DNA of 20,000 bases from Rhizaria sp. SCN 62-66 (taxonomy: Eukaryota), in assembly GCA_001724265.1 (NCBI GenBank), contig MEDY01000129.1:48754-68753 (forward strand), written 5' to 3'. Below are positions 1 through 20,000 of this stretch, piece by piece. The stretch's first letter is position 1, and each line of letters starts with the position of its first letter. The notes beneath the pieces are model-generated. The model ran no database searches and had not been told where the DNA came from. It saw only the letters and a list, made by a program, of their open reading frames with translations. The position numbers were made by a program, and so were the translations under genes.

Positions 1-286
1 CTCGTGTTTTCATTCGTCAATGGCGTCAGACCAAAGGGGCATCTTGTCTGCTTCTCCAATCACCTTTAGCAATATAAAAAGGAAGCACGCTAAGCAAAAT
101 TACACGCAGTCCGATTAGCCGTGCACCAAATAATAATATTACGCATGCATTGACTCATTTACCACCTCTTTGTCTTTCCCTATACGCAGAAACCTGTCAA
201 AGCGTCCTGCAATCTTGCTGCTTGTTGCTGATCTCTGAGTCGCGACACCAGCTAGTTTCCCTTTCGCGCCGCCTTCTGCCCGCTCG

Positions 287-2969
287 ATGGACCCGCCTTC
301 CCCGCGCGGCGGCGCTTCTTCGCGCTCGTCGTCCCCCTCGGCCGCAGCAGCCCGTCAGACGCCCTCTCTATCAGGCTCCGCGCCTGTTGTCATCCCACCC
401 ACGACTCCCCTTGCCGCGCCTCCGGCCGCCGCCAGCGTCGCCAATGCCGCCGCGGCCGGTGCAGCCCCGCTGCCGTTGGGCGCCAGTCTCTTTGGCACGG
501 ATCCCGAGCCCTCAACCATGGGGCGTTCCTACATCTATGACGACAACGCCAACAATAACAACAACAACAACAGCACTGGCAACGGTGGGAGCGTGAGCAC
601 CGCGGGCGGCGTCGTTCGCGGCGGCTACCTCGGTCTCGGCAACAACAGCCACGGCGACGGCGACGGCGACGGCGGCAGCAACAGCAGCAGCGCCGCTAGC
701 TCCCGCCGCAACAGTCTCCAAACCTCCGCTCCTCTCCTTGGCAACTCTAACCCTAACCACAACAATAATACCAACAACAACAGCAACAACAACGCGTCGT
801 CACAGTCACCCCACTCCGCCACGGTCACGACCGCGACCGGCCGCCACGGCGGCGGCGGCAGAGGCTCGGGCGGCCCCGGCTCCCGCGCCGGCTCCGGCCC
901 CAGCTCGCGCCACAGCTCGCGCCGCGGTTCCGGCTCTAGCGGGTCAGGCGGCGCGAACACCCTGGCAGCGCTGAACCTGCCGCCGCCTGGAACCGCGGGG
1001 TCTGAGCTCAGCGCGGAGGAGATCGCCGCGGTCTGGGACGCTTCAGACGCCGAGGTTGCGGAGCTGGCGCAGCAACGCCGTCAAGCGCCTCTGTACACTG
1101 TCATCATGATGTGTTTGACCGTGTTGTTTGTGTTTGCTGACCAGAACGTCATGGCGCCAAACTTGACCCAGATCGCGCGCGAGTTCAAGATGTCTAACGA
1201 TGAGCGCGACACCAAGCTCGGCGGGTACATTTCGGCCGCGTTCTTCCTCATCGGCGCTCCCGTCGCGCTTATCGTCGGATACTTCACTGATAAGTTCAAT
1301 CGCCCTATCGTCTTCGCCATCGTCGTGCTGCTCGGTGAAATCCCTTGTTTTTGCTCTGGCTTTGCGTCCAACTACACAGAACTGTTTATCACGCGCGCGC
1401 TGACCGGCATCGCCATCGGCGGCGCTGTCCCGCTTGTTTACTCACTGCTCGGTGACTTGTTCAACACTGAACAGCGCTCGCTCGCCGCCGCCGCGATCGG
1501 TATCTGCATGGGCGGCGGCATCCTTCTCGGTCAAATCATCGGCGGGCTTGTCGGTCCCCCCGCGGGATGGCGCGTGCCGTTCTTCATTGTGGCAGCCCCC
1601 GCGATTGTATTTGCGGTTATTGTCCTGTTCACCGTCAAAGACCCACCGCGCGGGCAGCAGGAGGAAGCTGCTGCGCGCTCACTCGTCGCTGGACAGGTAC
1701 GATATTTTTCCTGTCAAAGAACAAATATGCAAGTAAATATGATTTAACGAAGATTTATATGTTGTTCATTCTTTTTAGTTTAAAATAATGTCACAATACC
1801 TATTGTTTTTGTTTTGTTTTGAATTATGTAGGCGTATTCTGGCCAGTTCACGTGGCGCAAGGTAGGCGACATGCTCCGCACCAAGACCAACATCCTCGTC
1901 TACCTTACTTGCGCCACAAGCACAATCCCTTGGGGCGCGATTTTTGTCTTTGCCAACGATTTCCTTGCCGAGAACCGTCGCCTGGGCCCCGCCAAGGCGA
2001 CCTGGGTCGTCGTCGTGTTCGGCGTCGGCTCCGGTATCGGCGTCGTGCTGGGTGGCTACATCGGTCAAAAGATCTACAACGCGAGTCGGCCCTCGATTGG
2101 TATCTACATGGCGCTCACCACGGCCATCGGCGTCATCCCTATGGCGCTGCTGTTTGAGATCGCAACGCCTTCGATCTACGCGCTGCTAATCTTTCTCGCT
2201 CTGTTTGCCGGCGCGCTGCTGTCTGCGGCCTCGGCAAACACCAAGGCCGTATCCCTCAACGTCAACCTGCCCGGTACGTCTCACCCATTCATCACGATAT
2301 CTCTGAGATGTACTTACATCTTCATTTAGTGACATTTCTGCCACAATTCAATCGATTAGAATCCATATTTTTTGCACACTGTCTCACTTGACACTCATTA
2401 GGGACTGAACTCTTTCTTTGTTTCACCCACTCTGGAACTGCGACTATGAACGCACATCTACAGAGGTGCGCGGCACTGCCTTCGCGATGGTGAACATCAT
2501 GGACGACCTGGGCAAGGGCCTCGGTCCGATGATCTTCGCCGCCATCGCGCGCGGCGTTGGACGCCCCTGGGTACGTACTGCTACAGTATCATCATGAAAT
2601 GACAAAATACTCCGTCCTAAGTTTTCGTGTCCTAATTGTACTGTACTTGCACATGGTGATCTCTGATTGTACTTTCCTCTCATTTTGCACTTGCTTTCAC
2701 TTAACTCACGACGAACACGACGCTTTTGACGCATTCTTGCGCTTTCACATCCACAGGCAATGAACATCTCGATGATGATGTTCGTCGTTACGGCATGCTT
2801 TATCGGCTGCATCTACTGGACGCTCGAGGCCGACGAAGACCGCGTCCAGGCGATTATCACTCAGCAGCAGGACGACTCGCTGCCGCCCGAGGCGCTCGCC
2901 AGACGGTCTTCGTTTGATGCGCCGCTGGGCTTGGCGGAGCACGCACTTGCGCCTGAGAACGCTGTTTGA
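287..2969 (+). CDS. Spinster-like MFS transporter, 723 aa; exons 287-1696, 1832-2273, 2464-2570, 2757-2969
   Basis: MFS signatures (FVFADQNVMAPNL, VGYFTDKFNR motif A, RALTGIAIGG, LLGDLFxxEQRS, GWRVPF) and many hydrophobic helices. Three GTACG...YAG introns join in frame (AGQ|AYSGQ, NVNLP-E-VRGTAFA, GRPW|AMNIS). Ends in TGA. About 265 aa of low-complexity N-terminus. Confidence 0.9.
542..793 (+). repeat. Coding (AAC)n-rich microsatellites giving poly-Asn tracts, plus a GGCGAC repeat, in the MFS N-terminus
   Basis: aacaataacaacaacaacaac at ~551-571, aac/agc runs at ~760-793, ggcgac x3 at ~653-670. Confidence 0.8.
1697..1831 (+). other. Spliceosomal intron 1 of MFS gene (135 nt)
   Basis: cag|GTACGA ... 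T-rich tract ... tgTAG|gcg; phase 0; restores frame into ORF 1871..2329. Confidence 0.88.
2274..2463 (+). other. Spliceosomal intron 2 of MFS gene (190 nt)
   Basis: g|GTACGT ... ctaCAG|ag; phase 1; yields the MFS-type PExRGTA motif. Confidence 0.88.
2571..2756 (+). other. Spliceosomal intron 3 of MFS gene (186 nt)
   Basis: tgg|GTACGT ... ccaCAG|gca; phase 0; joins to the final TM helix ORF at 2760. Confidence 0.85.
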
Positions 2970-3925
2970 GTGATGACTGTGGACAGCTTCTACGACTGTG
3001 AGCAGTGGCGGCGATGAACAGCAATTGCGAGCTGAGTTGTCAGTTGGCTGGAGCTGCTAGTTGCTGCTGAGTTTGTGATCGTACTTTTTAGAAGTGTTTT
3101 TTTTTGTGTGTAAATATGTACTAGCGTGTTATTTGCTAATCTAAGCTGTTTTTTTTTTTTTTAAATGTGTTATGTTGGTGTGTGCCTGAAGAGCGTTGGA
3201 GGTAGCAACGGTTCGTACTCAAAGCGTTCATGTTCTTGCATGTGTACGAGTATGTTCGTGCTTTCTTTGCGTTAAGATGATAATAATGGTGTCCGTTACA
3301 GGCTTTTACAAGTGATTGTGAAATTGTCTTTTGTTGTTGCTGTGTTTGTGCCTGTTTACGTTGTCGGGAGTTGAGACCTTCGGTATCGCCCACACTCCGT
3401 ACACACATACGAGGCATGCAGTCATTTGTGTCGAGAAATTACTAAAGATCCAAATGAGAGAAGTTTGAATGAGCGAAATAAGTATTTGTACTTTTTGGAT
3501 GTGAACCTACTCTCCCAGCATTATGATGAGTCGTGACATTGAGCGAAATCTCATACTATGCGACGGATTCTTCTTGATGATGCTTTGGTGTGTGGTATGA
3601 ATAAACTGTTTATTGTGTTTTTCATCTGTGTAACATGGATTTTGTGTGTGTTGATTTTTACTGTTTTGATTTTCATTTTCCCTCTCTATGATGTCCAATG
3701 TGCGCTCGTGAACAATGACAAGAACCCCCGAAGCATCTTCACAAGTGCCGCAACATTCATAACAACAGTCAGTGCTGCGACACAACGCGCTCACACAGAG
3801 CGCGCGTGTGTGTGCCTAGAGATCTGCTGGTAATATCTACACATGCTCACAGTCACTGGCTATACATTTTTTTTTTGCAGGAAAAAGGATTTGTGTTGTT
3901 TCGTTGGCACTTACATTGTAGGTAC

Positions 3926-4960
3926 TTACTCCTTGTTGACGTGAATGAACTCAGAGTCGGACAGCGCAGAGGTGGCGACGGAGGCCTCAGCGGACGCAGC
4001 CTCGGACTCCTCAGCCTCGGCAGCCTTCTCCGTCGCCTCAGCGGCGGCGGCAGGGGCCTCAGCGGCGGCCTCAGCGGGCTTCTCAGCCTCGGCAACAGCA
4101 GCAGCAGCGGCGGCGGCGGGCTGGTTCGCGGCAAGCGACTTGTGGGAGCCGTCGCAGAAGGGCTCACCCTCAGCACGGCCCTTGGCGAGGCCGCAGGCGC
4201 AGACCCAAACCTGGTCCTTGCCAGTCGACTCCTTGCTGACGGCCTTGGGGGCGACGGACGTGCCGTGCTCGGCGTTGTACGCGCGGTGGGAGCCGTCGCA
4301 GTAGGGGAAGTTCTTGGACTGGCCGCACGTGCAGATGTACTTGGTCTTGCCATCTGGAGAGACACGCGAAACAGCAACAACAAAGCGAAGGAAAGAAAAC
4401 AGGACAATAGGGAGCATGACAAAACAATTTAGTTAGGATTTAGTGAGAATACAGTATTATTTGACCAAATCATGCGCTATTAGAGTATACTAAGGACGGA
4501 TGCAAGATATAATTGCGAATTTGAGTGCAAGCGTACCGGTGAGGTCGACAGCGATGGGTTTGGAACCCTTGTTGTGGGCAATGGGGTAGGCCTCCTTGTT
4601 CTGGCAGCAGCCGGCGTCCTCGATATCGCCGCCCTTGCAACATGCGCTCTTGGCGGCGCACGCGGCCTGCTTCTCGGCTGAGCAGCCCTTGGCGGCGCAC
4701 TCAGCCTTCTGAGCAGGCGAGCAACTAGTGGCGCTGGCGCTGGAGCCGCAGCAGCCGCCGGCGGCGGCGGCCTCGGAGGTGCCGTGGGGATTGATGGGGG
4801 AAATCTTAGCGAAGGTGTTGCGGCAGAGGCAGCAGAGGAAGTTGCGCACGGTCTCGGACTTCTGGTAGAGAACGTAGGTGCCGAGGGCGACGAAGCCGGC
4901 AATGATGCCGGCCTTGACCACGCAGGGCTGCTTCGCGCACGAGGAAGTGGAGCAGGACAT
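3926..4960 (-). CDS. Tandem CDGSH iron-sulfur protein (CISD/NEET family) with N-terminal TM helix, 283 aa; exons 4960-4537 and 4353-3926
   Basis: CTCGQSKNFPYCDGSH (4333-4286) and CACGLAKGRAEGEPFCDGSH (4201-4142). Intron 4536-4354 (GTACGC...ctcCAG, phase 1) gives PIAVDLT-D-GKTKYICTC. Hydrophobic AGIIAGFVALGTYVLY near the N-terminus. Ends in TAA. Confidence 0.9.
4354..4536 (-). other. Spliceosomal intron of CDGSH gene (183 nt)
   Basis: Minus strand g|GTACGC ... pyrimidine tract ... tctcCAG|at; joins two ORFs in frame. Confidence 0.88.
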
Positions 4961-5705
4961 TCGCTAACTGCGGTGCAGAAGAGCGCAAAAGGGCGGAGTT
5001 TAAGGGTGGTAGAGCGGAGTGAACGCGCACAGAGAATAGAGGGTGAGAAGTCTGTCAACCGGGGGCGTGGGAGGAAAAGCAGCTGCTTTTTGGGTCGCGT
5101 TCAAGAAGCGCCGGCAAATACTGTCTCGGGAGAGACACAAACGACGTATAAAGCACATGTAATAAAGAGATTATGCCAAATATTAAACCGTAATGCTATT
5201 CCGACATGTTTTCACAAAGCCTATGGGCTGGGCACGCCACACGAGTCGTCACAAACTAACTGGTGAACCTAGCAAATGCGTATGTTGGTTTCGCCCCCCG
5301 CAAGTTCTCACGCAAAAAACACGCCTTCCAGACGCATCTCACGAGAAAAACAGAAGCATTTCGAGCTCAAATCATAGTATATAATAAAAACAAGACATTC
5401 TATATTGCTGTTTCGTGTTACGCTTTGCTGCATCATTTTCACAGAGATACCGCTACTAAGATGTATTCGTCAGTGGGACCCGAGGTCTGATCCACCCAAT
5501 CTACTGCCATCGTAAGCAATGCTACACTGACCAGACAGGTCAAACAACTACAACGCAGCTAATTAGAGACTTTAACACATGGATTTGGCCATTTTGCGGC
5601 CACCAATAAACAATCACCGCGCAAAGAGGCAGTCAGTGAGTCACGAGTAACAACAACAAAGGTTTAGAGTTGAGAGTGAACGATACGCCTGACAAGCATC
5701 CGCGT

Positions 5706-8489
5706 TCATTTCTCGTCGCCCTTCCCACTGGTACCGCCCTGCTGTCCCTGCTGCTGCTGCCCTTGCTGCCCACTCTGTCCCTGCCCCTGCTGCTGCTGTT
5801 GCTGCATCTGCTGCTGTTGCTGCATCTGCTGCTGTTGCTGCCTCAGCCTCTTAAAGTGCTTATTTTTGGTGTGGATATACAGCGCCTGATGCGACCCGTA
5901 TGCCTTGCCGCACCCGGGCGCCTCGCACGTGTAGATCCGCTCAATCTCGTGCGCCGCGCGCCGCACGCGCGTCCCGCCCGCGCCGGCACCCGTCGCCGCG
6001 TTGCCGGTCGACGCGGCGTAGTCGCCGCCCAGCAGCGTCGTGAACGCGCCGGCCGAGGCGAGCGCGGCCAGAGTCGGTGAGTTGCCCGTACTGCCGCCGT
6101 TGCCCGCACCAGAGCCGGAGGATACGCTACTGCCTCCGCCGCTGCTGCCCGCTGCCGCGCGGCCGCTGCCGCCACTGCCGCCTTTGCTGCTGCCGCCGCC
6201 ACCGCCCTGGCGCCCCCCAGCGGCGCCGCTGCCGCTGTCAGCGCCGTTGCCGCTGTTGCCGCCGCTCTGCGCCGCGCCCGCCGCGGCCGGCAGCGCGAGC
6301 CGCATGGAGGCCATCGTGCGCTTGTGCGCGTCGACGTCGTCCAGCGCCTCGACGCGGCCAAACTTCGAGTAGACGAACGCCGCCGTGTCCGACGCCGCCG
6401 CCCATCCCGTGGTATTCCCGGTCGGCGCGTGCGCGTGCGAATGCGAGTGCGCGAGCGCGGCCGCGTCCGACACGCCCGCGGCCGTCGCGGCCGTCGCGGC
6501 GGCGGCGGCGGCGGCGCGGGCCGCGGTGCTCGGCATCGGGGTCAGCCCGGCCGCGTAGCTGTAGTTGTACGGGTACCCCGTGGCGCCGCCAGCGGCCGCG
6601 ATGGCAGCGGCGGCCGCGGCGGCGGTGACGCTCGCACTTGGCGCCGCCGCCGCCGCTGCAGACTGACTGCCCCCGCCGCGGCCCGCGCTGCCACTGGAAG
6701 TCGACGCCGCCGCCGTGGTTGCGGTGCTGCTGCCCTTACTGCGATCGCGGTCGCCGCGGCCACGGTCACGGTCGTCCTTGCCCGCCGCCGTCGCAACTGC
6801 AGTCCCCGCGGCATTCGAGGCGCCGGCGCCACCGGTCGACTGGTTGGAGATCGCCTGCAGCGCTGTGAGCGACGAGTGCGCTAGCGCGGCGACTGCAGCG
6901 GGGATCGACGCGCGCGCCGCCGACGTCATCCACGGGTTCGAGGACGCGTACCCCATCACAGCGGCCGCAGCGTCGCGCGCGGAGGCCGCCGAGGCCGCGG
7001 CGACGACGGCGCCCGACAGGCGGTGGTGCTCCGCGTTGTGCGGGGCGCGGCCCAGCGCGGGGCCGCCGGGCCGGTAGGCAGAGAGACGGCCCGTGCCGGG
7101 ATGCACCGCGGTGAGCGCGGCGCGGTCGGCGGCGCTGAGCGAAGACGACGCGGGTGTATTCGCGGAGGCCGCCGACGACGACGCGGCGGTGGTGGACCGG
7201 GCGGACCGGGCGCGGCTGGCGCTCTCGGCGGTGCCGTCGCCGTCGTCTTCCATAGCGTCGCCGCCGTTCGCAGCAGAAGTTGCAGAGGCAGAGGCGGAGG
7301 CGTCGGGCTCGCGCGCGCGCTTCCGGTTGCGGTTCTGCTCAGCAGCGTCGCCGTTCGCAGCGCTGGCAGTTGACGCGGTCGCGTTGTTGTTGTTGCTGCT
7401 GCTATTGCTGTTGCTGCTGTTGTTGGCGTAGGACGAGTCCGGGGGCGCGATTGGGATCGCGAGCAGCGGTGACGACCGCGGCACCGACGGCGCCTCATGC
7501 AGCGACGACGCGACCGCGAGGCGGCGCCAGTACGCCTCCGCCGCGGCCGCCGCGGCGCTGGCGGAGCCCGCGGGGGCGGCTTGCATTAACCGCGCCGCGG
7601 TGCCGGCGAGGCGGGCGCGCGCGGCGCCGAGAGCGACGGCGCTGCCCGCGACGGCCGCGGCCTCGGCGCCGCCCGAAAGCGCGTCGCTGCCCTCGGCGGT
7701 GTCGGCGCTGGCGGTGGAGTTGAGCGCGCGCAGGTCGGCGTGAGCTTCGTGCAACAGAGCCCAGGCCTCTGTGGCAGAGGCGGTCACTGCAGCGGTCGCG
7801 GCCTCGGTCGCGGACAAAGACGGGTTGGCTACCGCGGCGGCAGCGGCGGCGGCGGCGGCGGAGGCGGCACGCGCGGCCCCGGCGGCGGCGTCGGCGGCCG
7901 TGGGCAGTGTGGGGGCCATGTCGGCCACGGGACGCGCTGGGAGAGGCGCCAGCGGTAAAGAGTCGACGTGAGCCTTCCAGATGCGGTAGTGGAGCGAGAA
8001 CTTCCAGATTTGGTAGTAGAAGTCAACACACTGCTGCGTGGTCTTGGTGCGGATGTGGCGCGACATGACGTGGAAGTCCTTGCCCCACTGGCAGATGCAG
8101 GCTTCGAAAAGCGCGATTTCCTTCGGGGACCAGATGTCCATGGGCGACGGCCGGCGCAGCGGGGAGCGAAGTGCGTCGATCGTGCAGTACGCGGTCTGCC
8201 CGTACTCACCAGAGACCCAAACGGAGTTGCCGTTGGCGTGGACCTCGCGCGGGCGCATGTAGAAAGCGAGGGACGCGCGCAGCCAGGCGTCGAACTTGTC
8301 GCGGCCGGGCAGCTCGGCGCTGTGCGCGGGGCACAGAGCCATCTCCTCCTCTTCCGTCATCAGCAGGTGTGACGGGGAAGAGCCGCGGCGCACGGTCTTA
8401 CGACGTTTTGTCTTGCGCTTGGGCTGCGCAGAACGGCGGTTGCGAGAGCTGTTGCTTCCGCCACCAGAGCGCGAAGGAGCGTCACTCAT
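5706..8489 (-). CDS. SANT-domain + C-terminal C2H2 zinc-finger protein (putative chromatin/transcription regulator), ~927 aa, no intron in the CDS
   Basis: WSPKEIALFEACICQWGKDFHVMSRHIRTKTTQQCVDFYYQIWK matches the MTA/RERE/MIDEAS-type SANT pattern. RRAAHEIERIYTCEAPGCGKAYGSHQALYIHTKNKH is a C2H2 finger. Basic NLS-like PKRKTKRRK, Ala/Ser/Gly-rich linker, polyQ tail. Start placed at 8489 (MSDAP) because the upstream in-frame stretch is a pyrimidine tract/acceptor. Confidence 0.82.
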   Translation of the reverse strand: MSDAPSRSGGGSNSSRNRRSAQPKRKTKRRKTVRRGSSPSHLLMTEEEEMALCPAHSAELPGRDKFDAWLRASLAFYMRPREVHANGNSVWVSGEYGQTAYCTIDALRSPLRRPSPMDIWSPKEIALFEACICQWGKDFHVMSRHIRTKTTQQCVDFYYQIWKFSLHYRIWKAHVDSLPLAPLPARPVADMAPTLPTAADAAAGAARAASAAAAAAAAAVANPSLSATEAATAAVTASATEAWALLHEAHADLRALNSTASADTAEGSDALSGGAEAAAVAGSAVALGAARARLAGTAARLMQAAPAGSASAAAAAAEAYWRRLAVASSLHEAPSVPRSSPLLAIPIAPPDSSYANNSSNSNSSSNNNNATASTASAANGDAAEQNRNRKRAREPDASASASATSAANGGDAMEDDGDGTAESASRARSARSTTAASSSAASANTPASSSLSAADRAALTAVHPGTGRLSAYRPGGPALGRAPHNAEHHRLSGAVVAAASAASARDAAAAVMGYASSNPWMTSAARASIPAAVAALAHSSLTALQAISNQSTGGAGASNAAGTAVATAAGKDDRDRGRGDRDRSKGSSTATTAAASTSSGSAGRGGGSQSAAAAAAPSASVTAAAAAAAIAAAGGATGYPYNYSYAAGLTPMPSTAARAAAAAAATAATAAGVSDAAALAHSHSHAHAPTGNTTGWAAASDTAAFVYSKFGRVEALDDVDAHKRTMASMRLALPAAAGAAQSGGNSGNGADSGSGAAGGRQGGGGGSSKGGSGGSGRAAAGSSGGGSSVSSGSGAGNGGSTGNSPTLAALASAGAFTTLLGGDYAASTGNAATGAGAGGTRVRRAAHEIERIYTCEAPGCGKAYGSHQALYIHTKNKHFKRLRQQQQQMQQQQQMQQQQQQGQGQSGQQGQQQQGQQGGTSGKGDEK
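5740..5843 (-). repeat. CAG/CAA polyglutamine repeat with ~18-bp higher-order unit (QQQQQM)
   Basis: Plus strand ctgctgctgttgctgcat repeated ~2.8 times at ~5788-5841, flanked by Q/G-rich codons. Confidence 0.85.
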
Positions 8490-8497
8490 CGCGGCTG

Positions 8498-9127
8498 CAA
8501 TCGGGCCACGGAACAAAGGAGAGCAAATGTCATGATAAAGAGGCATAGAGATAATGTGAGTCAGGTGTACGCTGGATAAGCACAATATAACCATGCATTC
8601 GTTGTCGCAGCGGTATTCTCACCCAGGGATAAGGGCGGCACTGCGAAGATCAATGAGAGCGAGGTATCACTCTGACGATTACACTGCCACTTGGAGTACG
8701 GCCTGCAGCCGACACCGACGGGCTGCGCGCACAATACAAATATAGAAGCTTCACCAATCTCGTATAAATTACGGTCCCACCAGTGACATTCAAAATGATG
8801 ACTTCTGCATGTCCCAGCAAGGTGCGCTTTGATTGCCAACTTTCGCGCCTGCTGCAGAGCGCCTCGGACTCGAACCGAAAAAAAATTGTCCGTGGACGAT
8901 TCGAGCTTGTCGTTTTCATGTCACCACCGCATCAATACTCATTTTTTCACGCTGTATCACACACGGCCGAATAGGGCTGCTATATTCCCGCCAGATTTTA
9001 TTTAATCGCATTGCGTAGAGTGCGTTTTACGTTGTTGCCGAGCTGTCCGAAACTCTCGTTTCCGCTCTCCCCCTTCTCACTCGCATCTCCCCCTTTCCTT
9101 GTCTGTCCCTCGTGCTCCTGTTCGCCG
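8498..9127. promoter_or_regulatory. Putative bidirectional promoter region between divergent SANT gene and DauA-like gene
   Basis: ~630 bp lower-GC spacer between head-to-head starts; no convincing ORF. Inferred from arrangement only. Confidence 0.5.
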
Positions 9128-9130
9128 CAG

Positions 9131-10678
9131 ATGTTGCGCTCGCTCACCCGTGCCCACCGCGCCGCCGCGAAGGCCTCTGCCGCGCCCGTCGCCGCCCGCG
9201 CGCTGCTGTCCACCGCCGTGCGCGCCCCCGCGCTGCAGCAGCTGAGCGCGCTGGTGTCCGAGCCCGCCGGCGCCCACTTCGATGCCGTCGTCCTCGGCGC
9301 CGGCATCGGCGGTGTCGCGGCCGCCGTCGGCATCACGTCCCCTGCCATCACGCGCGTTACGCTTGACACCGTGCCAGTTGACGTCAACGCCGCGCCCTCG
9401 TCGACCGCGGCCGCTGTGGTTGATCTGACTACCCCGGCCGGCGAGCGTAAGCGTGTGCTCGTGCTTGAGTCAGAGGGCGACTTCTGCTTCCACTCCACGG
9501 GCCGCTCCGCCGCCATCTACTCCGAGGTCTACGGCTCCCCTGCCGTGCGCGCTCTCAGCACGGCCACGAAACCGTTTTACTACGCGCACGCCGCGTCTGG
9601 CCTGGTCAGTGAAACTCCACTCGCCGTCCGCCGACCCGCGCTGCACGTCACCAACGACCCCGCGCAGGCGGATATCAAAACCATCTACGCCGAGTCCGCG
9701 CCCTTGGTGCCCTCGCTGCGCCACATCACGCCCGCCGAGGCCGTCGACGCGTGCCCGTGGCTCATCGGCGCTACGGAGGACTTCCTCCACCGCGGCGAGC
9801 CCGCGTCTAACTTAGACGCAGAGGAGACTGAGAAGCGTCGCGCCGCCGTGATTACGGGCGCGCTGCTGGAGCCCGACGCGGCGACGATGGACGTCGACGC
9901 CATCTGGACCTCAATGACTAAGCTTGCGCGCGGCAACGGCGCCGCGTTCGTCAAAGGCGCTGCAGTGACCGACGCCACCGTCGACGCCGCTAGCAACCGC
10001 TGGACGCTCAAGATCGCCCCGTCCGAGAGCAACGCCGTGTCCCCCAACGCCGGCGAGACCGTGAGCGTGACCACGGACCTCGTTGTCAACGCGTCCGGTG
10101 CTTGGGCCGACACCGTGGCCAGCAAGTTCGGCGTCGCCCCAGTGGGGATCACTCCGATGCGCCGCACCATCATCCAGTTCGATCCCGCTGACGTGGCGCC
10201 CGCGTTTCCCGCCGCCGCGGGCTTTGCGGACAAGGACGCGTACCTCCGCGCGCAGGGCGCCTGGCCCGCTGTGTTCGATGCCCACGACACGTACTACTAC
10301 AAGCCTGAGAGCGGCCGCGTCCTGGCGTCCCCCGCCGACGAGACCCCCACGGAGCCGTGCGACGCCCAACCCGACGACTGGGACATCGCGGTCTGCGTCG
10401 ACCGGCTCAACGACGCGACGCCGTTCCGCCCGCGCAAGGTCGCAGAGAAGTGGGCCGGGCTCCGCTGCTTCGCCACTGACCGTGAGTTCGTCATCGGCGA
10501 GGATGCGTCTGCCAAGGGGTTTTTCTGGATGGCCGGGCTCGGCGGTTACGGCATCCAGACTGCGATGGGTAACGCGAAGCTCATCGCGGGGCTTGTGCAC
10601 GAGGGCAAGGTGCCGCAGGAGCTGAAGAAGTGGGGATTCGATGAGAGCAAGATCTCTCCCAACCGCTTCCGCAAGTAA
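9131..10678 (+). CDS. FAD-dependent D-amino-acid dehydrogenase (DAO family, D-arginine dehydrogenase DauA-like) with mitochondrial presequence, 515 aa
   Basis: Rossmann VVLGAGIGG; HSTGRSAA-x-Y-x3-YG-x-P-x-VRAL; VVNASGAWAD; PMRRT; YYKPE; SPADETP; WAGLRCF; GFFWMAGLGGYGIQT; C-terminal SPNRF. These are collinear with Pseudomonas DauA as I recall it. N-terminus MLRSLTRAHRAAAKASAAPVAARALLS is R/A/S/L-rich with no acidic residues. Confidence 0.88.
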   Translation: MLRSLTRAHRAAAKASAAPVAARALLSTAVRAPALQQLSALVSEPAGAHFDAVVLGAGIGGVAAAVGITSPAITRVTLDTVPVDVNAAPSSTAAAVVDLTTPAGERKRVLVLESEGDFCFHSTGRSAAIYSEVYGSPAVRALSTATKPFYYAHAASGLVSETPLAVRRPALHVTNDPAQADIKTIYAESAPLVPSLRHITPAEAVDACPWLIGATEDFLHRGEPASNLDAEETEKRRAAVITGALLEPDAATMDVDAIWTSMTKLARGNGAAFVKGAAVTDATVDAASNRWTLKIAPSESNAVSPNAGETVSVTTDLVVNASGAWADTVASKFGVAPVGITPMRRTIIQFDPADVAPAFPAAAGFADKDAYLRAQGAWPAVFDAHDTYYYKPESGRVLASPADETPTEPCDAQPDDWDIAVCVDRLNDATPFRPRKVAEKWAGLRCFATDREFVIGEDASAKGFFWMAGLGGYGIQTAMGNAKLIAGLVHEGKVPQELKKWGFDESKISPNRFRK

Positions 10679-11302
10679 GCATAAGTAAGCTTAAGCCGCT
10701 TGTGTCACTATTTGTGTTGAGACGTTTGTCGATCGGGTTATATTTGAATACATAGTTTATATATTTTTGAGATACGATGCAGTATATAAAAGCACTTTGT
10801 ATTGTTCTGTTTCATCAACTACAAGCCACTACGCATCGACACACGTACTGCAACATGATTCCAAACAACAAGAGCTTGATCACGTGTCACTGTACTGTTA
10901 TGTTTGTTGCGCTGCGAAAGAGCTGAAACGAAACATAATGATAATATTTGTAATTGTGTTTTTGTTCTTATTTTAAGTTCGAAAGCACGGAGGAAAACAA
11001 CACATCACAGTGACGCAGTATACTTATAAGTTTCTGTGAGGAGTCGCGCTTCGCTACTTTCGACAGTTTTCTTACATTTTCTTTTTCTGGTTGTTGTCGT
11101 TGTTCTTGAACTTGATGATATTTTTTCCTATTGCGTTTAAATTTCATGCTAATTCATCCTTCTACTACTCAATCACATCACTTGAAACCAATCGCTTCCT
11201 TCCCTTAATAATTCTAAGCTTTAGTAACCACAGCTTGCAGAGTCCGATTCGCGGTAATCGCTATAGCAGCTGCAATTGTGCTTATTTCGCGCCTTCAAGT
11301 AT

Positions 11303-13294
11303 TTAAAGGTCGGTGAGGTCGGTGGCAACGTAGACGTAGGGGTAGTACTCCTGGCCGCCGCCCATGGTCGCCAAATCGATATCCGCGTCGGCCTTGGAGC
11401 CGGCGAGCAGAGACGAGTTGGCGAGCCCCGAGTAGAGGTTGTTAAGCACATCACGCAGCTTCTTCTCCGAACCCTTCTCGGGCAGCAGCAGCGCGGCGAT
11501 CCACTCGGTGGACAGACCGTAGCGCAGCACCGCCTCAACGTACACGCGCATCGCAACCACGTGGGTCCACGCGACGAACGCTTCTTCGAACTGCGACTCG
11601 CACCACAGCAACAGGTGCTCCCAGCGCGCGCGGCGCTTGTTGACGAGCTCGGCCATGATGAGGCGGTTGCGCTCATCCTCGTGTGCGTCAAACTTGAACG
11701 GACGCACAGTCCACCGGTGGTCGCGGCAGATAGCCTTGAACTTCTCCACGTTGGCCGTCGACTGCGCACCGCTGTGCTCGTCGCGGTCGCGCGCGTTGCT
11801 GCTGCTGGCCGAGTCGCCCACGGCGGCGTCGGGGCGCTTGAAGAGAACGACGCGGTACAGCACGAACTCGTCACCGGGGACCTGCTCCTCGCCGACAACC
11901 TTGATGGCGGAGCCGGGGACGACAGTGGACGTGGGCACGTTGGCAGAGCTCTTCTTGTTGCCGTTGCGGTCCACGGCCTTCGCGGCGGCCGCGGGGGCAG
12001 GGGCAGTCGCAGCCGGGGAAGCGGCAGCGGCGGCGGGGGCGGCGACAGTGCCCATGGCCTTGTCCATCTCGGCCTTGCGCGCGCGCTCGCGGGCCTCGGC
12101 CTCGGCATGGCGCTCGCGCTCAGCCTGCGCCTTCTCGGCGGCCCACTGCTCGACGAGCATGTACGACGCCAGGAACTCCTGCTCCTTGAGCTTGGGCACG
12201 GCGAGGAACACCGTCGTCAGGTGAGGGGTCTCGACCACGACCTCGGGGCGCAGGAAGCGCGAGATGGGGCGGACGAGGATCGAGCCGTTTTCCTTACGCT
12301 CCTGCGCGGTGACGAGGCCCTTGATCTCGTTGAACTCGGACAGCAGGCGGCGCAGCTCCTCGTCAGACTTAGCGAAGTCGTCGACGACCTTAAGACGGAT
12401 CGTGTCGATCGAGTCCGACTCGTTGAACACGTACCGGTTCCAGCGGAACTTGAAAAACGCCTCGCGGGGCGTCTTGGCCTGGTTCGCGCCGTGCGGGTCC
12501 GCGCCGAGCGCCTCGCCGATCATGAGAGACTGCGGAACGGCGGCGGCGGAGAGCTCGTCGGCGTTGTAATCGGCTGAGTGGTTCGCGAGCAGGACACGCT
12601 CCTCGGGACGGACCTTGGAGGGCTCGGCCTTGCGGGTGTCGTCGAAGGTGCGCTTAATCTTCTTGACGAGGGCGTTCATCGACGTGTCGAGCTTGGCGAG
12701 GTCGTCGGAGAGCGCGATGAGGGTGTCGATGGTGCCGACCTTGAGCTTCGGGATGCGGAACTTGTGGTTCACGGACAGGCTGCGGGCCGCGGTGGCGTCG
12801 TCCAGACGACGCCGCGTCTGCTGCGCGTCCTTGTTCTCCGCGGGCACGGCTGTTGGGAGGACGGGCAAGTGAGGTACAGGGAGGGCAAATGGGGAGCGAG
12901 AGAGAAGGAGGGGAAATGGCAGTGGTCGGAGATTGGGGTGAGTGGGACAAGCACATCCTAGGCATGGGAGAGTGAGATAAGGACACAGGCAGGCAAAAGA
13001 GGCACAAAGGGGTACATCCGGCAACAATCATTTGGGACAAACGACTTGTGTAAATATCAGTATTTCCTGAGGTGTTCTGCGGAAAGGAAAGTCGGCATAG
13101 TGAAGCAGATGAGGAGCTGGCCTCGGGGCGCCAGTCTGCCACAGCTAGCGCGATGAAATGAAGTTGTGAAAAAGTGCTATGCTGTGCACATCGTGCTTCA
13201 GATACATGTCTAAGATGCGATTCTAGTTGCGAAGTAAAGTGACTTCATGCCGAAGAGCTGACGTACCAATGACCCAAGCGGCGTTGCTTGCCAT
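11303..13294 (-). CDS. ATP6V1C: V-type H+-ATPase V1 subunit C, 524 aa; exons 13294-13267 and 12849-11303
   Basis: KFRIPKLKVGTIDTLIALSDDLAKLD, FRWNRY, ERKENGSILVR, HLTTVFLAVPK, VVPGSA, WTVRPF, FEEAFVAWTH...RVYVEAVLRYGL, EYYPYV. A 28-nt first exon (MASNAAWVI-A|VP) supplies the typical W-hydrophobic-x-P N-terminus via a GTACGT...aaCAG intron. Confidence 0.93.
12850..13266 (-). other. Spliceosomal intron of V-ATPase C gene (417 nt)
   Basis: Minus strand attg|GTACGT ... long pyrimidine tract ... ccaaCAG|cc; phase 1. Confidence 0.85.
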
Positions 13295-13303
13295 AGAGCC
13301 CTG

Positions 13304-14278
13304 CGGACGGAAAAGACGAATGGGGACGGATACAAGAGGGCGGGTGAGCACAGAAGAGCTAAAACGCGGTGATTAAGACAGATGACTACGTGAAAAGTCT
13401 GCTCAAAAGCGGCCGGTGTCGACACGAAGGCAATAAGGACCGCCAGGATTGGGTTTTCTCGACCAAAGACGTGCACCGTCGAACCGGTCCTGCAGAGTAA
13501 ATAAGTGTGTTCAAATATGGGCAGACCAATGTCAGTCTTCGCAGCAATCCGTTGATAGAAAGAAATTCCCACCATCTACCTTCCCATAACCATTATTTAC
13601 TACTTCAACCAGCGTATGCCCGATATAGACCCATAACAAGCCGATCCCTACGTCACCCCTCTTCTCAATTCTTCTCTTCTCTGTGCCAGCCAGCAGCCGG
13701 TCGGTCGGAAAAATCTGACTGCCACACAGCGAAAAATTAGGCCTCGTTCCGAGCGGTGCCGAAGAGACGGGCCAGTTTCGTCGAGAGTCCGCCCATACTC
13801 GGCTCCAGTAAAAAGCTCAGAAGTTGTGACACACTGTATGGGGTTTGTTATGCGGTGGTCAATGTTGGATGTTTTTCATATGCCATATTTCGTGCACTTG
13901 TGCGGTATAACCACGCTTTCTTCGGGAGGTGGCGAGCACCTCGGCTTTTCAGGGGCGTCGCTTGCAGCAAAGCGGACTGTTCGCATTACGCCCGTGCATT
14001 CTTCAATGAAAATGCAGTGTAATAACAGGATACCAGTCTCATGTACCTTCCGAGCTACATCCCAACTCCGAATCCCCGGCTTTATGAGGCCCTGAGAGGG
14101 AAGGTCTGAGCATGGACCCGCGATCGAGCAATCCTCCGAGCCGGGCTTATCCCACGCTTCGCGACGCCGGTCAGGCGCACTTGCTCACTGAATCCCGCGA
14201 AACCCATCTGTGACAACGTACACACTCACTTCTCCCACATTTCCGTCCTTGTTTCTTCCTCCCATGCGTTTGTTATAA
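13304..14278. promoter_or_regulatory. Putative bidirectional promoter region between divergent V-ATPase C and citrate synthase genes
   Basis: ~975 bp non-coding spacer between head-to-head genes. Inferred from arrangement only. Confidence 0.5.
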
Positions 14279-14289
14279 TAGAAGCCGAT

Positions 14290-15732
14290 ATGTTGAAGAA
14301 CGCTATCCGCATGGCCAAGGCCGTCAAGGCCCCCGTGGTGTCCGCGCCCGCGCGCAACACCCACCTGCTCAAGGCGCGCATGGCCGAGATGATCCCCAAG
14401 CGCCGCGAGGAGTTCTCCGCCCTCAACAAGACCCACGGCGAGAAGGTCATCGACTCCGTCACCGTCGGCCAGCTCACCGGTGGCATGCGCGGTATTAAGT
14501 GCATGCTCTGGGAGACTTCCATCCTTGACGCCAACGAGGGTATCCGCTACCGTGGCAAGACCATCCCCGAGCTCCAGGCCGCTCTCCCCGGCGTTTCTCG
14601 CCCCGGACTCTCTAAGGGCGAGCCCCTCCCCGAGGCGACCCTCTGGTACCTCATGACCGGTGAGGTCCCCACCGAGGCCCAGGTTGAGTTCCTCCGCCAG
14701 GACCTCCACGAGCGCTCCAAGATCCCCGCCCACCTCAAGCACGTCATCGCGGCCCTCCCCAAGGAGACCCACCCCATGACCCAGTTCATCTCCGCCATTG
14801 CCGCGCTCCAGACCGACTCGATCTTCGCTGAGAAGTACCACACCGTCAACAAGAAGGACTACTGGGGCCCCGCGTTCGAGGACGCCCTCAACGTCATCGC
14901 CAAGCTCCCCAAGGTCGCCGCCATGATCTACAACCACTCGTACGGCAACGGCACCACCCCCGACGCCGACACCTCGCTCGACATGGCCGCCGCGTTCAAC
15001 CGCATGATCGGCTTCGGCGCTGGGGGCAAGCCCTCGATGCAGGGCTGGGTCGACGAGAAGGAGTCCAAGGACGCCTTCGACGAGTACATGCGTCTCTACC
15101 TCACCATCCACTCCGACCACGAGGGTGGCAACGTTTCCGCGCACTCCGTCCGCCTTGTGGGCTCCGCGCTCTCTGACCCCTACCTCGCCTTCTCGGCCGG
15201 TATGGCCGGTCTCGCGGGCCCGCTCCACGGTCTCGCCAACCAGGAGGTGCTTGACTGGACTCTGCGCGCGCAGAAGAAGCTCATCGACGCCGGCCAGGGC
15301 CTCAACAAGGACACCGTGCGCCAGCTCGCTTGGGACACTCTCAACTCGGGTCAGGTCATCCCCGGCTTCGGCCACGCCGTCCTCCGCAAGACGGACCCCC
15401 GCTACACCTCCCAGCGCGTCTTCGCTCAGAAGCACATGCCCAACGACGAGCTGTTCAAGCTCGTGTCCCTCATCTACGAGGTTGTTCCTGACGTGCTCAC
15501 CCAGCACGGCAAGACCAAGAACCCCTGGCCCAACGTCGACGCCCACTCCGGCTGCGTGCTTCACCACTATGGCCTCACCCAGACCAACTTCTACACCGTG
15601 CTCTTCGGCGTTTCCCGCGCCATCGGCACTCTGTCGCAGTACGTCTGGGACCGTGCGCTCGGCCACCCCATTGAGCGTCCTAAGTCCGTCGACTTCCCCC
15701 TGCTCCAAAAGCTCATCGCCGAGGCCAAGTAA
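14290..15732 (+). CDS. CS: Citrate synthase, mitochondrial (eukaryotic type), 480 aa, no intron in the CDS
   Basis: [103 protein letters not shown]; basic presequence; strong C-ending codon bias. Confidence 0.98.
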
Positions 15733-16553
15733 GTCACTTAACACCAGTAATGCCTTCCTCCTCGCTGGTCTCACCCTTAGCAGCTGCGACGATGTGGCTC
15801 AGTCAAACGGAGTCGTTGGTGTTGTGCCTACGTATATGGTGGTGATCGCTGATGCCGTAGCTAGCTTTGTTAGTAGTGTGTATGCCTTTGTCTTTACGAT
15901 GGGCCTGCGCGCGCTCGGCAACAGTTTGGTCGCCCTGTGTTAATTCATATTTCGTAAAATATCACATTGTAGATTGTAAGCACGACGGCGAAAACGACGA
16001 TGTTTGTGACTTTCTCTCTCTTCTTCGCACAGCTGTGACCGCTGATGTCTATCATGTGTAGCATTGGTTCGTCTGCGCTATGTGGGGCTTTATCTATCTC
16101 GACCTCACACCCCTAACAGTCGCCGACACAGTCAGCCAATCAGTCCAGGACGACAATTTCACTCTGTTTGACTGGGGGATGGCTGTGATCGGCGCACCCC
16201 GCTTCTCGCGTATACGTGCGTCTAAATATGTGTGCATGTGCGAGTGAGGCGGGCTTATTCTATTTGCGTCACTGCGTCTCTTGTGTGCTTGCTTCATTTT
16301 ATGGGCGCGCAGTGGAGACATGAGGCTAGCTTCTCAATACAAATGTAACAAATACACTTAAATACGGTCAACCAAGTCACGACTAAACATGTCACGGGCA
16401 AAAATGGGCGGACGCCAAATGTCATGTGTGTTAGCAGTTCAATGTGATGCCTACAAAACAAGTCAATAATATAATAAGCTTAAGATTATTTGTTACGTTG
16501 TGGTTGTGGTCTCTATCGCGTCACTTAGGATTGAAGCCGACGAAATATACCGA

Positions 16554-16965
16554 ATCCGCGAGTCTGGCCTTGGTTGCTACTTTCCGACTTCACGCCAACA
16601 GTGACGGCTCGATATGTTCATTCTTGTTCTTCTGCTTGTTACAATTGCTCTTGCCACTCCGATCACCTAATGCAGTCGCAGGATTGCTCGGGTTTAACAT
16701 CTTCGACGCACTATTCAATTCAACACGAATATTTGACTTAATCGCATTTGACTTAATCGCATCGTTGTTGTAAAGGCCATAACCGTTGATGTGGCAGTCT
16801 TCATCGTCGTCGCTAAAGATAAGCTTATCACCTTCACGCGCGCGCGCACCACATGCCTCGTAGAGCGCGGTCAGGGCTTTCCAAATTGGCTCTGCCGTTA
16901 CCTCGCACTCAAGCCCACATGAGCAGTGCGCGTTCACACCCTCCATACCGGCGCCACTGACACGC
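16554..16965 (-). pseudogene. Partial, frameshifted duplicate of the unknown gene at 19225-19604
   Basis: Three blocks match in the same orientation: 16554-16607 vs 19225-19278 (1 mismatch in 54), 16783-16815 vs 19407-19439 (33/33), 16821-16965 vs 19460-19604 (~20 mismatches in 145, counted by hand). The intervening segment is unrelated and shifts the frame. Confidence 0.75.
16731..16760. repeat. Perfect 15-bp tandem duplication (atttgacttaatcgc x2)
   Basis: Direct inspection; encodes AIKSN-AIKSN on the minus strand. Confidence 0.9.
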
Positions 16966-17781: not shown

Positions 17782-18676
17782 TCACGCGACCGACAGGCAC
17801 TGCACCGCGCAGGAGACTTGCTGCGCAGGGCTTAAAAACGATGAATACAGGTGTGTCAAAGGTACGCGAGCTTTGAGAAGGTACTAAACTAAACAGCGCG
17901 AATATACGAGCACTGAGCCGACTGGATGGATCAGGTCCGCGTCAGCACCAGGTGCTGTATACTCTCCGTATACGATATCAGCGTTCGGCAGCATTACAGG
18001 CATTTTGTTGAATGACACTTTCGAGTCACAGTGGTCGAGCGTGACAAAAGGCATTATTGCTGCAGTCTGACCAGGTGGCACAAAACATTGGTACACTAAC
18101 TTGCCCAAGTCGCGGGTACTTGCAGCGACGCGAAAATGGGCGGCGTTCGCGGGAAACTTTGCATCATCTAGCCGGATCACCACCTAATAACCCATAGTCT
18201 TTCGCGCGAAAGGGTCACGAAAGGGTGCCCGCATTATCAAATCCAAATGGGATGATGTCTTTAGAGTTGATGCTGTGTAAGACAAGATGCGATCACGCGC
18301 CTTTTTTTGCAGAGCACCAAGTACCGCTGACGATGGCGCGCCAAGTTGGCGCACAGGGGGCCGAAAATCCCAAAGACCAGCGACCTTAAGAGTATGCGCG
18401 ATGTGCGTGTCTAACTCGGCCTCCCACGCAGAAGACTTCAGTAAAGTAACCCACGGCACATCTCGACGTTGTCGAGCCTCCTCTTCATCTTTTGCCGTAG
18501 CTTCCTCTTCTGCTTTAGCCTAAATATATGCCCTTACTAGCAGCTTGTTACCTGAGCTACTCGAGTTCCTCCTCCAGATTCCTCTTGTCCAACTTTAGCG
18601 ATTTGATCGTTTTTTGAAAGTTGTACTAGCAATTCTGCCAACGCAGTTTCTCATCCTCCCACTCGCGTTGCAGGTT
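17782..18676 (-). pseudogene. Stop-interrupted continuation of the unknown gene (pseudogenised tail or recoded CDS)
   Basis: Continues the 35-aa repeat past the first TAG; contiguous in-frame ORFs 18184..18459 and 17884..18183 are separated only by TAG; one frameshift near 18550; first TGA at 17784-17782. Confidence 0.55.
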
Positions 18677-18860
18677 CTATGACGTCTTCTTGTCAGACTC
18701 TAGCAAGCGAATGCTGTTATCATAGTCGACCTTGCACTTCTGCCAACTCAGCTTCTCAGTCTCCAACGCGCGTTGCATGTTCTGCGACGTCTCCTTGTCA
18801 GACTCTAGCAAACGCATCTTTTTATCATAGTCGACCTTGCATTGCTGCCAAACCTTGTTC
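18576..18860 (-). repeat. 105-bp (35-aa, five-heptad) coding tandem repeat, ~2.5-3 diverging copies
   Basis: gacgtc...gtcagactctagcaa...ttatcatagtcgaccttgca...ctgcca at 18681 and 18786 (period 105). Translations: WQQCKVDYDKKMRLLESDKETSQNMQRALETEKLS / WQKCKVDYDNSIRLLESDKKTS*NLQREWEDEKLR / WQNC*YNFQKTIKSLKLDK. Confidence 0.85.
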
Positions 18861-19981
18861 TCTGCCTCCAGCGCAAGCACACGTTGCTGGTTGGCATCGG
18901 CTTGTGCAGCGACATCGGTTGCCACAGCGTCCACGCACAGCTGCAATGCGCGCGCCTGCTGCACAACGTCAGGGAACGACACGCTGCAACATACACGCAA
19001 CACAGTAGTGTTGTTGCTTGTCTTGGTGTTCTTCTTTTTGTGTTGAGACGGCGCAACGTTTAGTGCTGTTGGAAAGCCCACCGTGATGACGGCTGTGTGT
19101 CCGTTTCCTGATTCAACAGCAGACGCTGCGTTCTTAGCGTTGATGTCGGACTCCGCATGAGACTTACTTTCGTTTGCATCCTCACACACACCATTATTGC
19201 CTCCTGTTAACCACACCTGGCCGGATCCGCGAGTCTGGCCTTGGTTACTACTTTCCGACTTCACGCCAACAGTGACGGTTACGTTGACGCAGCCAAAAGT
19301 GCTTGCAATCGTTGTGAAAGGAGGAGTAGAAACAGACACGTCAGCAGTGGCAGCCGCATCTACAGCTTTGAATGCGAAGTTATCAATAGATGGAGCACTT
19401 ACATTGCCGTTGATGTGGCAGTCTTCATCGTCGTCGCTATCGTCGTCGTTGGTGGAGACAAGCTTATCAACAGCGAGCGCGCGTGCACCACAGGCCTTAT
19501 AGAGCGCGCTCAGGGCCTTCCACATTGGCTCTGCCGTCACCTTGCACTCAAGCCCACATGCGCAGCGCGCGTTTACGCCCTCCACGCCGGCGCCACTGAC
19601 ACGCACACCGGAGCTGCTAGACAAAGGCTTGGACGTGCAGTTGCAGCCACGGCGCGCACTGAAACTAAAGCGCACACCGCACACCTCAGCTGTGCCCAAG
19701 GCGAAGTCGGTGGCGAGCGCAGAAGCAGGAACATCAGCCTCAATAACAACTTCGCGCGGGGTCGTGGTCGTAGCGGCATCAGCGAGTGCGGCTTCGAAAG
19801 CTTTGCGCGCGGCTGCATACTTGATGTTACTGATTTCCAGCTCAGGACCCACGCTCGCGGGCCAGCCAGGGCTTGCTGCAACAAGTGCGGCCAACGCCGT
19901 GACCTCGGGCGCATCGACAGATTTGCTGATGCCTTCGAGGTCGCTGCGTGCCTTTGCGAGCCTCTTCTCTTCAGCACTCAT
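18677..19981 (-). CDS. Unknown protein with a Cys-containing N-terminal region and C-terminal coiled-coil repeats (434 aa under the standard code; possibly ~732 aa extending to 17782)
   Basis: Long ORF; ATG 3 nt after a gcgCAG acceptor, like the other genes; a paralogous fragment exists nearby; no family recognised. The frame is open to the window edge, so an upstream exon is not excluded. Confidence 0.55.
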   Translation of the reverse strand: MSAEEKRLAKARSDLEGISKSVDAPEVTALAALVAASPGWPASVGPELEISNIKYAAARKAFEAALADAATTTTPREVVIEADVPASALATDFALGTAEVCGVRFSFSARRGCNCTSKPLSSSSGVRVSGAGVEGVNARCACGLECKVTAEPMWKALSALYKACGARALAVDKLVSTNDDDSDDDEDCHINGNVSAPSIDNFAFKAVDAAATADVSVSTPPFTTIASTFGCVNVTVTVGVKSESSNQGQTRGSGQVWLTGGNNGVCEDANESKSHAESDINAKNAASAVESGNGHTAVITVGFPTALNVAPSQHKKKNTKTSNNTTVLRVCCSVSFPDVVQQARALQLCVDAVATDVAAQADANQQRVLALEAENKVWQQCKVDYDKKMRLLESDKETSQNMQRALETEKLSWQKCKVDYDNSIRLLESDKKTS

Positions 19982-20000
19982 TGACTGCGCAGTGTACAGC

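Follow-up and report, generated by a model that had tools for sequence, protein, structure and literature searches.

In the literature that our search covered (supplements and subscription journals lay outside it), spliced-leader (SL) trans-splicing, the addition to messenger RNAs (mRNAs) of a short leader taken from a separate SL RNA, was described among Rhizaria only for photosynthetic Paulinella, and no description of it was found for sainouroids or other heterotrophic Cercozoa. In Paulinella micropora (Rhizaria, Euglyphida), the mRNA leader is 28-33 nucleotides (nt) long, SL-I and SL-II genes are present, and trans-splicing has been proven by reverse transcription PCR; in the calmodulin gene of the same species, leader and gene meet at an AG, the outron is rich in pyrimidines, and transcription begins between -136 and -151 (PMC6053224). 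SL RNA genes are reported to be putatively absent from the heterotrophic sister of photosynthetic Paulinella (PMC9311404), and eustigmatophytes are another recently added SL trans-splicing lineage (PMC8570151). Here we describe a 20,000-nt stretch of DNA from Rhizaria sp. SCN 62-66 (GenBank assembly GCA_001724265.1, contig MEDY01000129.1, positions 48,754 to 68,753 of the forward strand), hereafter the window, in which candidate 3' splice acceptors lie just upstream of the start codons. The window carries seven genes on both strands, namely an MFS transporter (3 introns), a CDGSH iron-sulfur protein (1 intron), a Myb/SANT protein, a DAO-family flavin adenine dinucleotide (FAD) oxidoreductase, V-ATPase subunit C (1 intron), citrate synthase (CS), and a gene referred to as gene 7. 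The limited RNA data suggest that a short shared leader is spliced onto mRNAs, and SL trans-splicing is the best explanation of the acceptors before the ATGs, with about an even chance of being correct.

The window resembles Paulinella micropora in that the organism is a rhizarian, cis introns are kept, an AG acceptor stands before the ATG, and a pyrimidine-rich tract lies upstream of it. It differs in that a leader, SL genes, and proof by reverse transcription PCR are available for Paulinella and none of these has been seen here. The Paulinella leader of 28-33 nt compares with about 27 nt here (25 letters that do not fit the window and two that also fit as AG), and it ends in G after CT, whereas the last two letters here may be AG. 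In nematodes, an animal lineage with operons, outrons are removed by SL1 trans-splicing at an unpaired acceptor that precedes the ATG by a few nt, and AG forms the end of the leader. The unpaired acceptor close to the ATG is a feature that the window shares with nematodes, and a leader ending in AG may be another; unlike in nematodes, no operon-like gene order was seen in the window. In the cryptomonads Guillardia theta and Hanusia phi, the distance between the SL site and the ATG peaks at 0 nt, with 36.6% at no more than 10 nt, the acceptor is C/TAG after a polypyrimidine tract, NAGNAG alternatives occur frequently, both strands carry genes, and cis introns have been retained; a 17-nt leader is encoded by 20 SL genes in the genome and is added to transcripts of ~21% of genes (PMC5619915). 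The window is like the cryptomonads in its use of both strands, in its cis introns, in its pyrimidine tracts, in its TAGAAG pair at CS, and in the distances from AG to ATG, which are 97, 7, 5, 0, 6, 8, and 3 nt for MFS, CDGSH, SANT, DAO, V-ATPase C, CS, and gene 7, respectively. Unlike in the cryptomonads, where ~21% of genes are involved, the signal is found on six or seven of the seven genes, and leader letters were not seen.

Under SL trans-splicing, transcription would begin about 50 to over 230 nt ahead of the ATG, and the outron, consisting of a CTCAY motif and a long AG-free pyrimidine tract, would be cut off at the first AG, 0-8 nt before the ATG. At that AG, the spliceosome would attach a short leader supplied by a separate SL RNA, and ordinary introns of the GTACG..AG type would be spliced in cis alongside. 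Such a leader would measure at least ~27 nt, and its last two letters may be AG.

An earlier sequence-only reading of this DNA had proposed an acceptor before every start codon, and its description of the sites is borne out: the coordinates of all seven AGs and all seven distances to the ATG are correct, and the six sites whose upstream sequence is visible all follow a pyrimidine-rich tract. We defined an acceptor-like class of AG dinucleotides as those having 1) at least 68% pyrimidines in the 40 nt upstream of the AG and 2) an AG-free zone of at least 55 nt, and both strands were scanned. This class holds 22 of the 2281 AG dinucleotides of the window, and it takes in all six visible pre-ATG AGs (189, 4968, 8495, 9130, 13301, and 14281) and two of the five cis acceptors (4354 and 12850). 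The pattern at the pre-ATG sites is far from chance. Base composition would predict 5.0 AGs in the 55-nt segments before the pre-ATG AGs of the six genes and of one relative, whereas none was seen and GA occurs four times; the 3' ends of the five cis introns contain one AG versus 6.3 expected, and nine GAs. Because AG is avoided and GA is not, as at the ends of cis introns, the tracts have a splice-specific property beyond their richness in pyrimidines. The sites before the ATGs have the appearance of genuine 3' splice sites.

The CTCAY motif is found 31-75 nt upstream of the AG in all six tracts; multiplying the probabilities from shuffles matched in composition gives 7e-4, for a motif that was picked after seeing the data. 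The claim that cis introns share this motif held for three of the five only. Upstream ATGs are present in two of the tracts, four of them in the SANT tract (the nearest 57 and 44 nt before the start codon) and one in the CS tract (26 nt before the start codon), and splicing at the AG would remove them. The SANT frame remains open for 35 codons upstream of the ATG at 8489 (8490-8594, minus strand), with ATGs at 8594 and 8546. The GC (guanine plus cytosine) content at third codon positions is 0.51 in this upstream frame compared to 0.85 in the gene, so the upstream frame is probably not coding.

The arrangement recurs at the closest CS locus in the metagenome collection (L001), whose protein is 84% identical to that of the window. 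It has CTCAT, a strong pyrimidine tract, and an AG 3 nt before the ATG, and its DNA upstream of the ATG gives no alignment with the window; the layout is kept between the two loci and the sequence is not. A second locus (CS 64% identical) is AT-rich and represents a different kind of genome, and was therefore not comparable, and the other CS loci are too distant to help.

RNA evidence was drawn from public runs matching positions 8400-16000 of the window. Six such runs were listed, of which five hold the stretch or part of it, and four (X1, X3, X4, and X5) were compared, as contigs rather than reads. Contig ends and uncovered places in such data are weak hints at best; X1 does not extend over the CDGSH, V-ATPase C, and CS tracts, and neither X1 nor X4 extends over intergenic bins. 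X1 and X4 hold spliced complementary DNA (cDNA) of the host, as judged by the joint 4353/4537 in both runs and the joint 12849/13267 in X1. Introns and spacers are covered in X5 as they would be by DNA, and no 5' end was obtained from X3.

The contig that bears most directly on a leader is X1 record 4 (1921 nt, depth 21), from V-ATPase C. It fits the window at 10990-12849, skips the intron, and fits 36 further letters from 13267, which correspond to the 34-nt exon 1 and the two letters AG, to about 13302; beyond these are 25 letters without a fit to the window. Among the 33 nt that precede the ATG in this contig, six are genomic 5' untranslated region (UTR), two more fit (AG), and the 25 do not fit. 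The point at which the contig departs from the genome, defined to within 2 nt, is the CAG 13303-13301 predicted as acceptor, and among the joints listed none links the 25 letters to another place in the 20-kilobase window. The protein that the contig encodes (P0163, 524 amino acids, MASNAAWVIAVPAENK) equals the full spliced V-ATPase C model. We infer that the 25 letters belong to a leader common to many mRNAs that comes in trans.

At two other genes the RNA runs across the acceptor unspliced. X1 record 2 (8187-8542, no differences) passes the SANT acceptor by 45 letters on its upstream side; for DAO, the contig is X4 record 20 (8900-9373), which reaches 229 letters upstream of the acceptor. 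Both bridging contigs fit outron-bearing precursors, and contaminating DNA is a possible alternative. They place the start of transcription before the AGs and so speak against initiation at the AG itself. All five RNA observations can be accommodated if a leader from elsewhere is spliced on: the SANT and DAO contigs would be precursors, and those of the other genes would show mature ends.

Several observations weigh against SL trans-splicing. The 25 letters of the V-ATPase C contig could be a leader, an adapter, or a fold-back artefact, and the same letters were not seen on the mRNA of a second gene among the listed loose ends of the X1, X3, X4, and X5 contigs. Two of the five genes with informative RNA contigs (SANT and DAO) were seen only unspliced. 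The spliced X1 contig of CDGSH begins at 4965, at the second AG (4965-4964), with no extra letters. At CS, an X1 contig carries 19 non-fitting letters, and its fit stops at 14295, inside codon 2, rather than at the acceptor. The SANT contig of X1 ends at 8542, only 15 nt short of the A of CTCAC (8557), so that CTCAY may be an initiator marking the start of transcription instead of a branch point. CGCAG precedes five of the seven starts (187-189, 4970-4968, 9128-9130, 13303-13301, and 19987-19985) and none of the five cis acceptors, which are TGTAG, CTACAG, CCACAG, CTCCAG, and CAACAG; this is odd if the 3' splice-site rules are common to both. No SL RNA gene was found within the window: Rfam gave no SL family and only a sub-threshold match resembling a small nucleolar RNA, and the pattern of an SL RNA gene (GTA[CT]G followed by an Sm-like site) was matched twice, within a cis intron and within a stretch that resembles coding sequence, neither time convincingly. 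Finally, the signature is drawn from only six or seven genes and one site of a relative.

The 19 letters of the CS contig (14276-14295) may stem from an artefact or from a variant close to where the contig ends.

A common leader was also sought outside the window. Among 50 of 80 metagenome CS loci, 12-mers located up to 300 nt before the start of the CS match were shared only between near-identical contig pairs, in a set of contigs from many unrelated organisms, and gave no common leader. Protein clusters were inspected for N-terminally extended open reading frames that would translate a leader; P0163 starts at the ATG and is consequently uninformative in this respect.

What the sequence-only reading predicted for RNA has fared unevenly. 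It had expected a shared non-templated leader at the AGs, and the V-ATPase C contig provides 25 letters foreign to the window at the predicted AG; the sharing was not seen. It had named reads running unspliced through the tracts as evidence against itself, and these were found for SANT and DAO, where precursors would look identical. Its proposal of SL trans-splicing is partly supported: it has in its favor the acceptor-like sites, the V-ATPase C contig that leaves the genome at the AG, and the unspliced RNA over two sites, and lacks a shared leader and an SL RNA gene; its extension to most mRNAs is based on six or seven genes only.

The acceptor anatomy would be identical if the sites belonged to cis-spliced introns in the 5' UTR, in which case each gene would have a short untranslated first exon at a greater distance upstream, spliced to the AG that precedes the ATG. 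The donors are informative in this respect. GTACG is the donor of all five cis introns in the window, two of which (4354-4536 and 12850-13266) are borne out by RNA contigs, and it is found upstream of DAO (8567 and 8696) and of V-ATPase C (14221). In addition, GTATG is present upstream of CS at 13614 and 13836, and the related locus L001 has GTATGT ~295 nt before its AG (by eye). However, four of the six genes have no upstream GTACG, which is absent from the 189 nt visible for MFS, 738 nt for CDGSH, 636 nt for SANT, and 987 nt for CS; gene 7, with only 19 nt of the window upstream of its site, was left outside this count. The sequence-only reading had stated the cis donors and the upstream occurrences of GTACG in the same way. 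Moreover, among the joints listed there is none at any of the six sites, the 25 letters of the V-ATPase C contig are not joined to 14222 onward, and the X4 contig that spans 8900-9373 shows no joint from either DAO donor. We consider cis-spliced 5' UTR introns improbable, the least probable of the explanations discussed here.

Two further explanations do without splicing at these sites. The "AG" could be part of a core promoter, i.e., a pyrimidine patch with a pyrimidine-purine initiator (CA or TA), giving mRNA leaders of 2-10 nt, and the extra letters of V-ATPase C would be a library or assembly artefact. Plant core promoters, with their pyrimidine (Y) patch and the YR rule for the initiator, are built from these two elements, and the coding-strand pyrimidine tracts that end at a C/T-A step here are similar to them; unlike here, 5' UTRs in plants are tens of nt long, and such promoters predict neither AG avoidance nor non-genomic 5' letters. 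The fit of the V-ATPase C contig reaches the A of CAG (~13302), and the first letter of the CDGSH contig is the A of TAG (4965), in each case a purine after a pyrimidine, and the excess of CGCAG over the cis acceptors would also be in keeping with an initiator. Against this stand the RNA contigs that extend 45 (SANT) and 229 (DAO) letters upstream of the AG, the 2-nt leader that DAO would receive, the avoidance of AG but not of GA, which is not expected of a promoter patch, and the 25 extra letters of V-ATPase C, which need a separate explanation. We regard a core promoter as unlikely, while ranking it above the other two alternatives. Transcription could instead start at or near CTCAY as the initiator, in which case the tract would be a plain pyrimidine-rich 5' UTR. 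CTCAY fits a TCA-type initiator, X1 record 2 is colinear over the SANT tract and stops 15 nt before it would reach the A of CTCAC, and X4 covers the DAO tract. Yet the V-ATPase C contig leaves the genome at the AG and does not continue into the tract, and the X4 contig of DAO starts 176 nt upstream of CTCAC, which is consequently not its start. Plain 5' UTRs would also place the upstream ATGs of SANT and CS within the untranslated leader and leave the intron-end-like avoidance of AG unexplained, and the contigs of CDGSH and CS stay out of the tracts, which is a weak hint only. This explanation likewise appears unlikely to us, falling between the other two.

Coordinates of the candidate acceptor sites, exon 1 of V-ATPase C, and the cis introns in the window
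Feature	Position	Strand	Details
MFS pre-ATG tract	119..189	+	CTCAT 154-158; 69-nt AG-free pyrimidine-rich zone; CAG 187-189; ATG 287, 97 nt on
MFS second acceptor-like site	255..347	+	90-nt AG-free zone, ends CCGCAG 342-347; spans annotated ATG 287
CDGSH pre-ATG tract	4964..5051	-	CTCAC 5047-5043; 82-nt AG-free zone; CAG 4970-4968; second AG 4965-4964; ATG 4960
SANT/Myb pre-ATG tract	8495..8571	-	CTCAC 8560-8556; 75-nt AG-free zone; CAG 8497-8495; ATG 8489
DAO pre-ATG tract	9043..9130	+	CTCAC 9076-9080; 86-nt AG-free zone; CAG 9128-9130; ATG 9131 directly after
V-ATPase C pre-ATG tract	13301..13358	-	CTCAC 13348-13344; 56-nt AG-free zone; CAG 13303-13301
V-ATPase C exon 1	13267..13300	-	34 nt, ATG 13294; joined to exon 2 across intron 12850-13266 in X1 record 4
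Citrate synthase pre-ATG tract	14175..14284	+	CTCAC 14225-14229; 105-nt AG-free zone; TAG 14279-14281 and AAG 14282-14284 (NAGNAG pair); ATG 14290
Gene 7 pre-ATG site	19982..19987	-	gcgCAG 19987-19985; 3 nt before ATG 19981; tract outside window
MFS cis intron 1	1697..1831	+	GTACG..TAG; comparison set for acceptor anatomy
MFS cis introns	2274-2463, 2571-2756	+	comparison set for acceptor anatomy
CDGSH cis intron	4354..4536	-	GTACG..CAG; cDNA joints in X1 and X4
V-ATPase C cis intron	12850..13266	-	GTACG..CAG; cDNA joint in X1 and protein P0163

At the MFS gene, it is uncertain whether the start codon or the acceptor is correctly placed, because the second acceptor-like site spans the annotated ATG. 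The real start may be a later ATG, and an in-frame candidate was spotted by eye at 518.

The window is nuclear eukaryotic DNA, with GC-rich exons and AT-richer introns and spacers, and third-position GC is 0.85-0.91 in the SANT, DAO, and CS genes. The six modelled genes have reading frames that are open throughout, without internal stops. Pfam matches (MFS_1, zf-CDGSH, Myb/SANT, DAO, V-ATPase_C, and Citrate_synt) uphold the labels that the six named genes had been given from the sequence, and gene 7 has no Pfam match. A search of the window for transfer RNAs found none.

The earlier reading had left the lineage to CS or 18S phylogeny, and CS now places the host roughly in Cercozoa near Guttulinopsis, on one gene tree with few named taxa. 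Rosculus vilicus, whose GC content is 37.7%, is a different organism from the host. The best named matches of the CS protein are those of Guttulinopsis vulgaris (64%) and Euglypha rotunda (63%), both Cercozoa. In a tree of 30 rows, the window protein falls inside a fully supported clade of 12 rows that consists of environmental sequences and Guttulinopsis, and Euglypha is found in the next wider clade. Going by this placement, the host would be heterotrophic and would belong to a different cercozoan group from Paulinella. The public runs that hold the stretch come from wastewater, activated sludge, and biofilm, and the host, an uncultured wastewater protist, is probably a cercozoan amoeba. Scanning prokaryote genome contigs with the CS of the window (P0004) returned 19 loci, all of them citrate synthases of bacterial metagenome-assembled genomes with 45-56% identity, and no relative of the host.

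The relatives of the DAO protein (9131-10678) carry no lineage signal. A few environmental eukaryote-like matches are found at 69%, 58%, and 45%, the best named match is a Colpodella transcriptome protein at 42%, and alphaproteobacterial FAD oxidoreductases follow with ~39% identity over ~79% of the protein. The gene looks bacterial in origin with an added N-terminal part.

Gene 7 raises a separate question about its stop codons. In the region 18548-18789 (minus strand), its open reading frame stops at the TAG 18679-18677, and its 105-nt coiled-coil repeat continues in frame through the TAGs 18628-18626 and 18559-18557 to the TAA 18550-18548. Among the remaining six genes, four use TAA and two use TGA as the stop codon and none uses TAG, which is also missing in frame from all of their 3458 codons, 243 of them for leucine. 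UAG is read as leucine by a sainouroid that came from an insect (PMC5304391). The TAG of gene 7 may equally be a sense codon or belong to a decayed last repeat. A partial, diverged second copy of the gene is located 2.6 kilobases away (16550-16965 versus 19221-19604, in blocks that are 84-97% identical); it has no pyrimidine tract before it and is probably a gene fragment.

The most far-reaching reading of these results, which we hold to be slightly less than an even bet, is of a heterotrophic cercozoan that lives in wastewater, is close to the sainouroid amoebae, and adds by trans-splicing a leader of ~27-30 nt, with AG at its end, to the majority of its mRNAs. Short outrons would put the acceptor 0-8 nt before the ATG, and the organism may also read UAG as sense in some genes. 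SL trans-splicing would then have a second origin, or an unexpectedly wide spread, in Rhizaria. In Paulinella, it has been linked to the uptake of foreign genes. If SL trans-splicing is confirmed here, the mechanism would be a known one in a new lineage, and a heterotrophic cercozoan with acceptors before nearly every ATG would mean either that the trait is both older and more widespread within Cercozoa or that it evolved a second time. For metagenomes, a pyrimidine tract that is free of AG and stops 0-8 nt ahead of the ATG would provide a marker that can be recognized from the genome only, and the finding would bear on the annotation of 5' ends and start codons in eukaryotic metagenome contigs of this kind.

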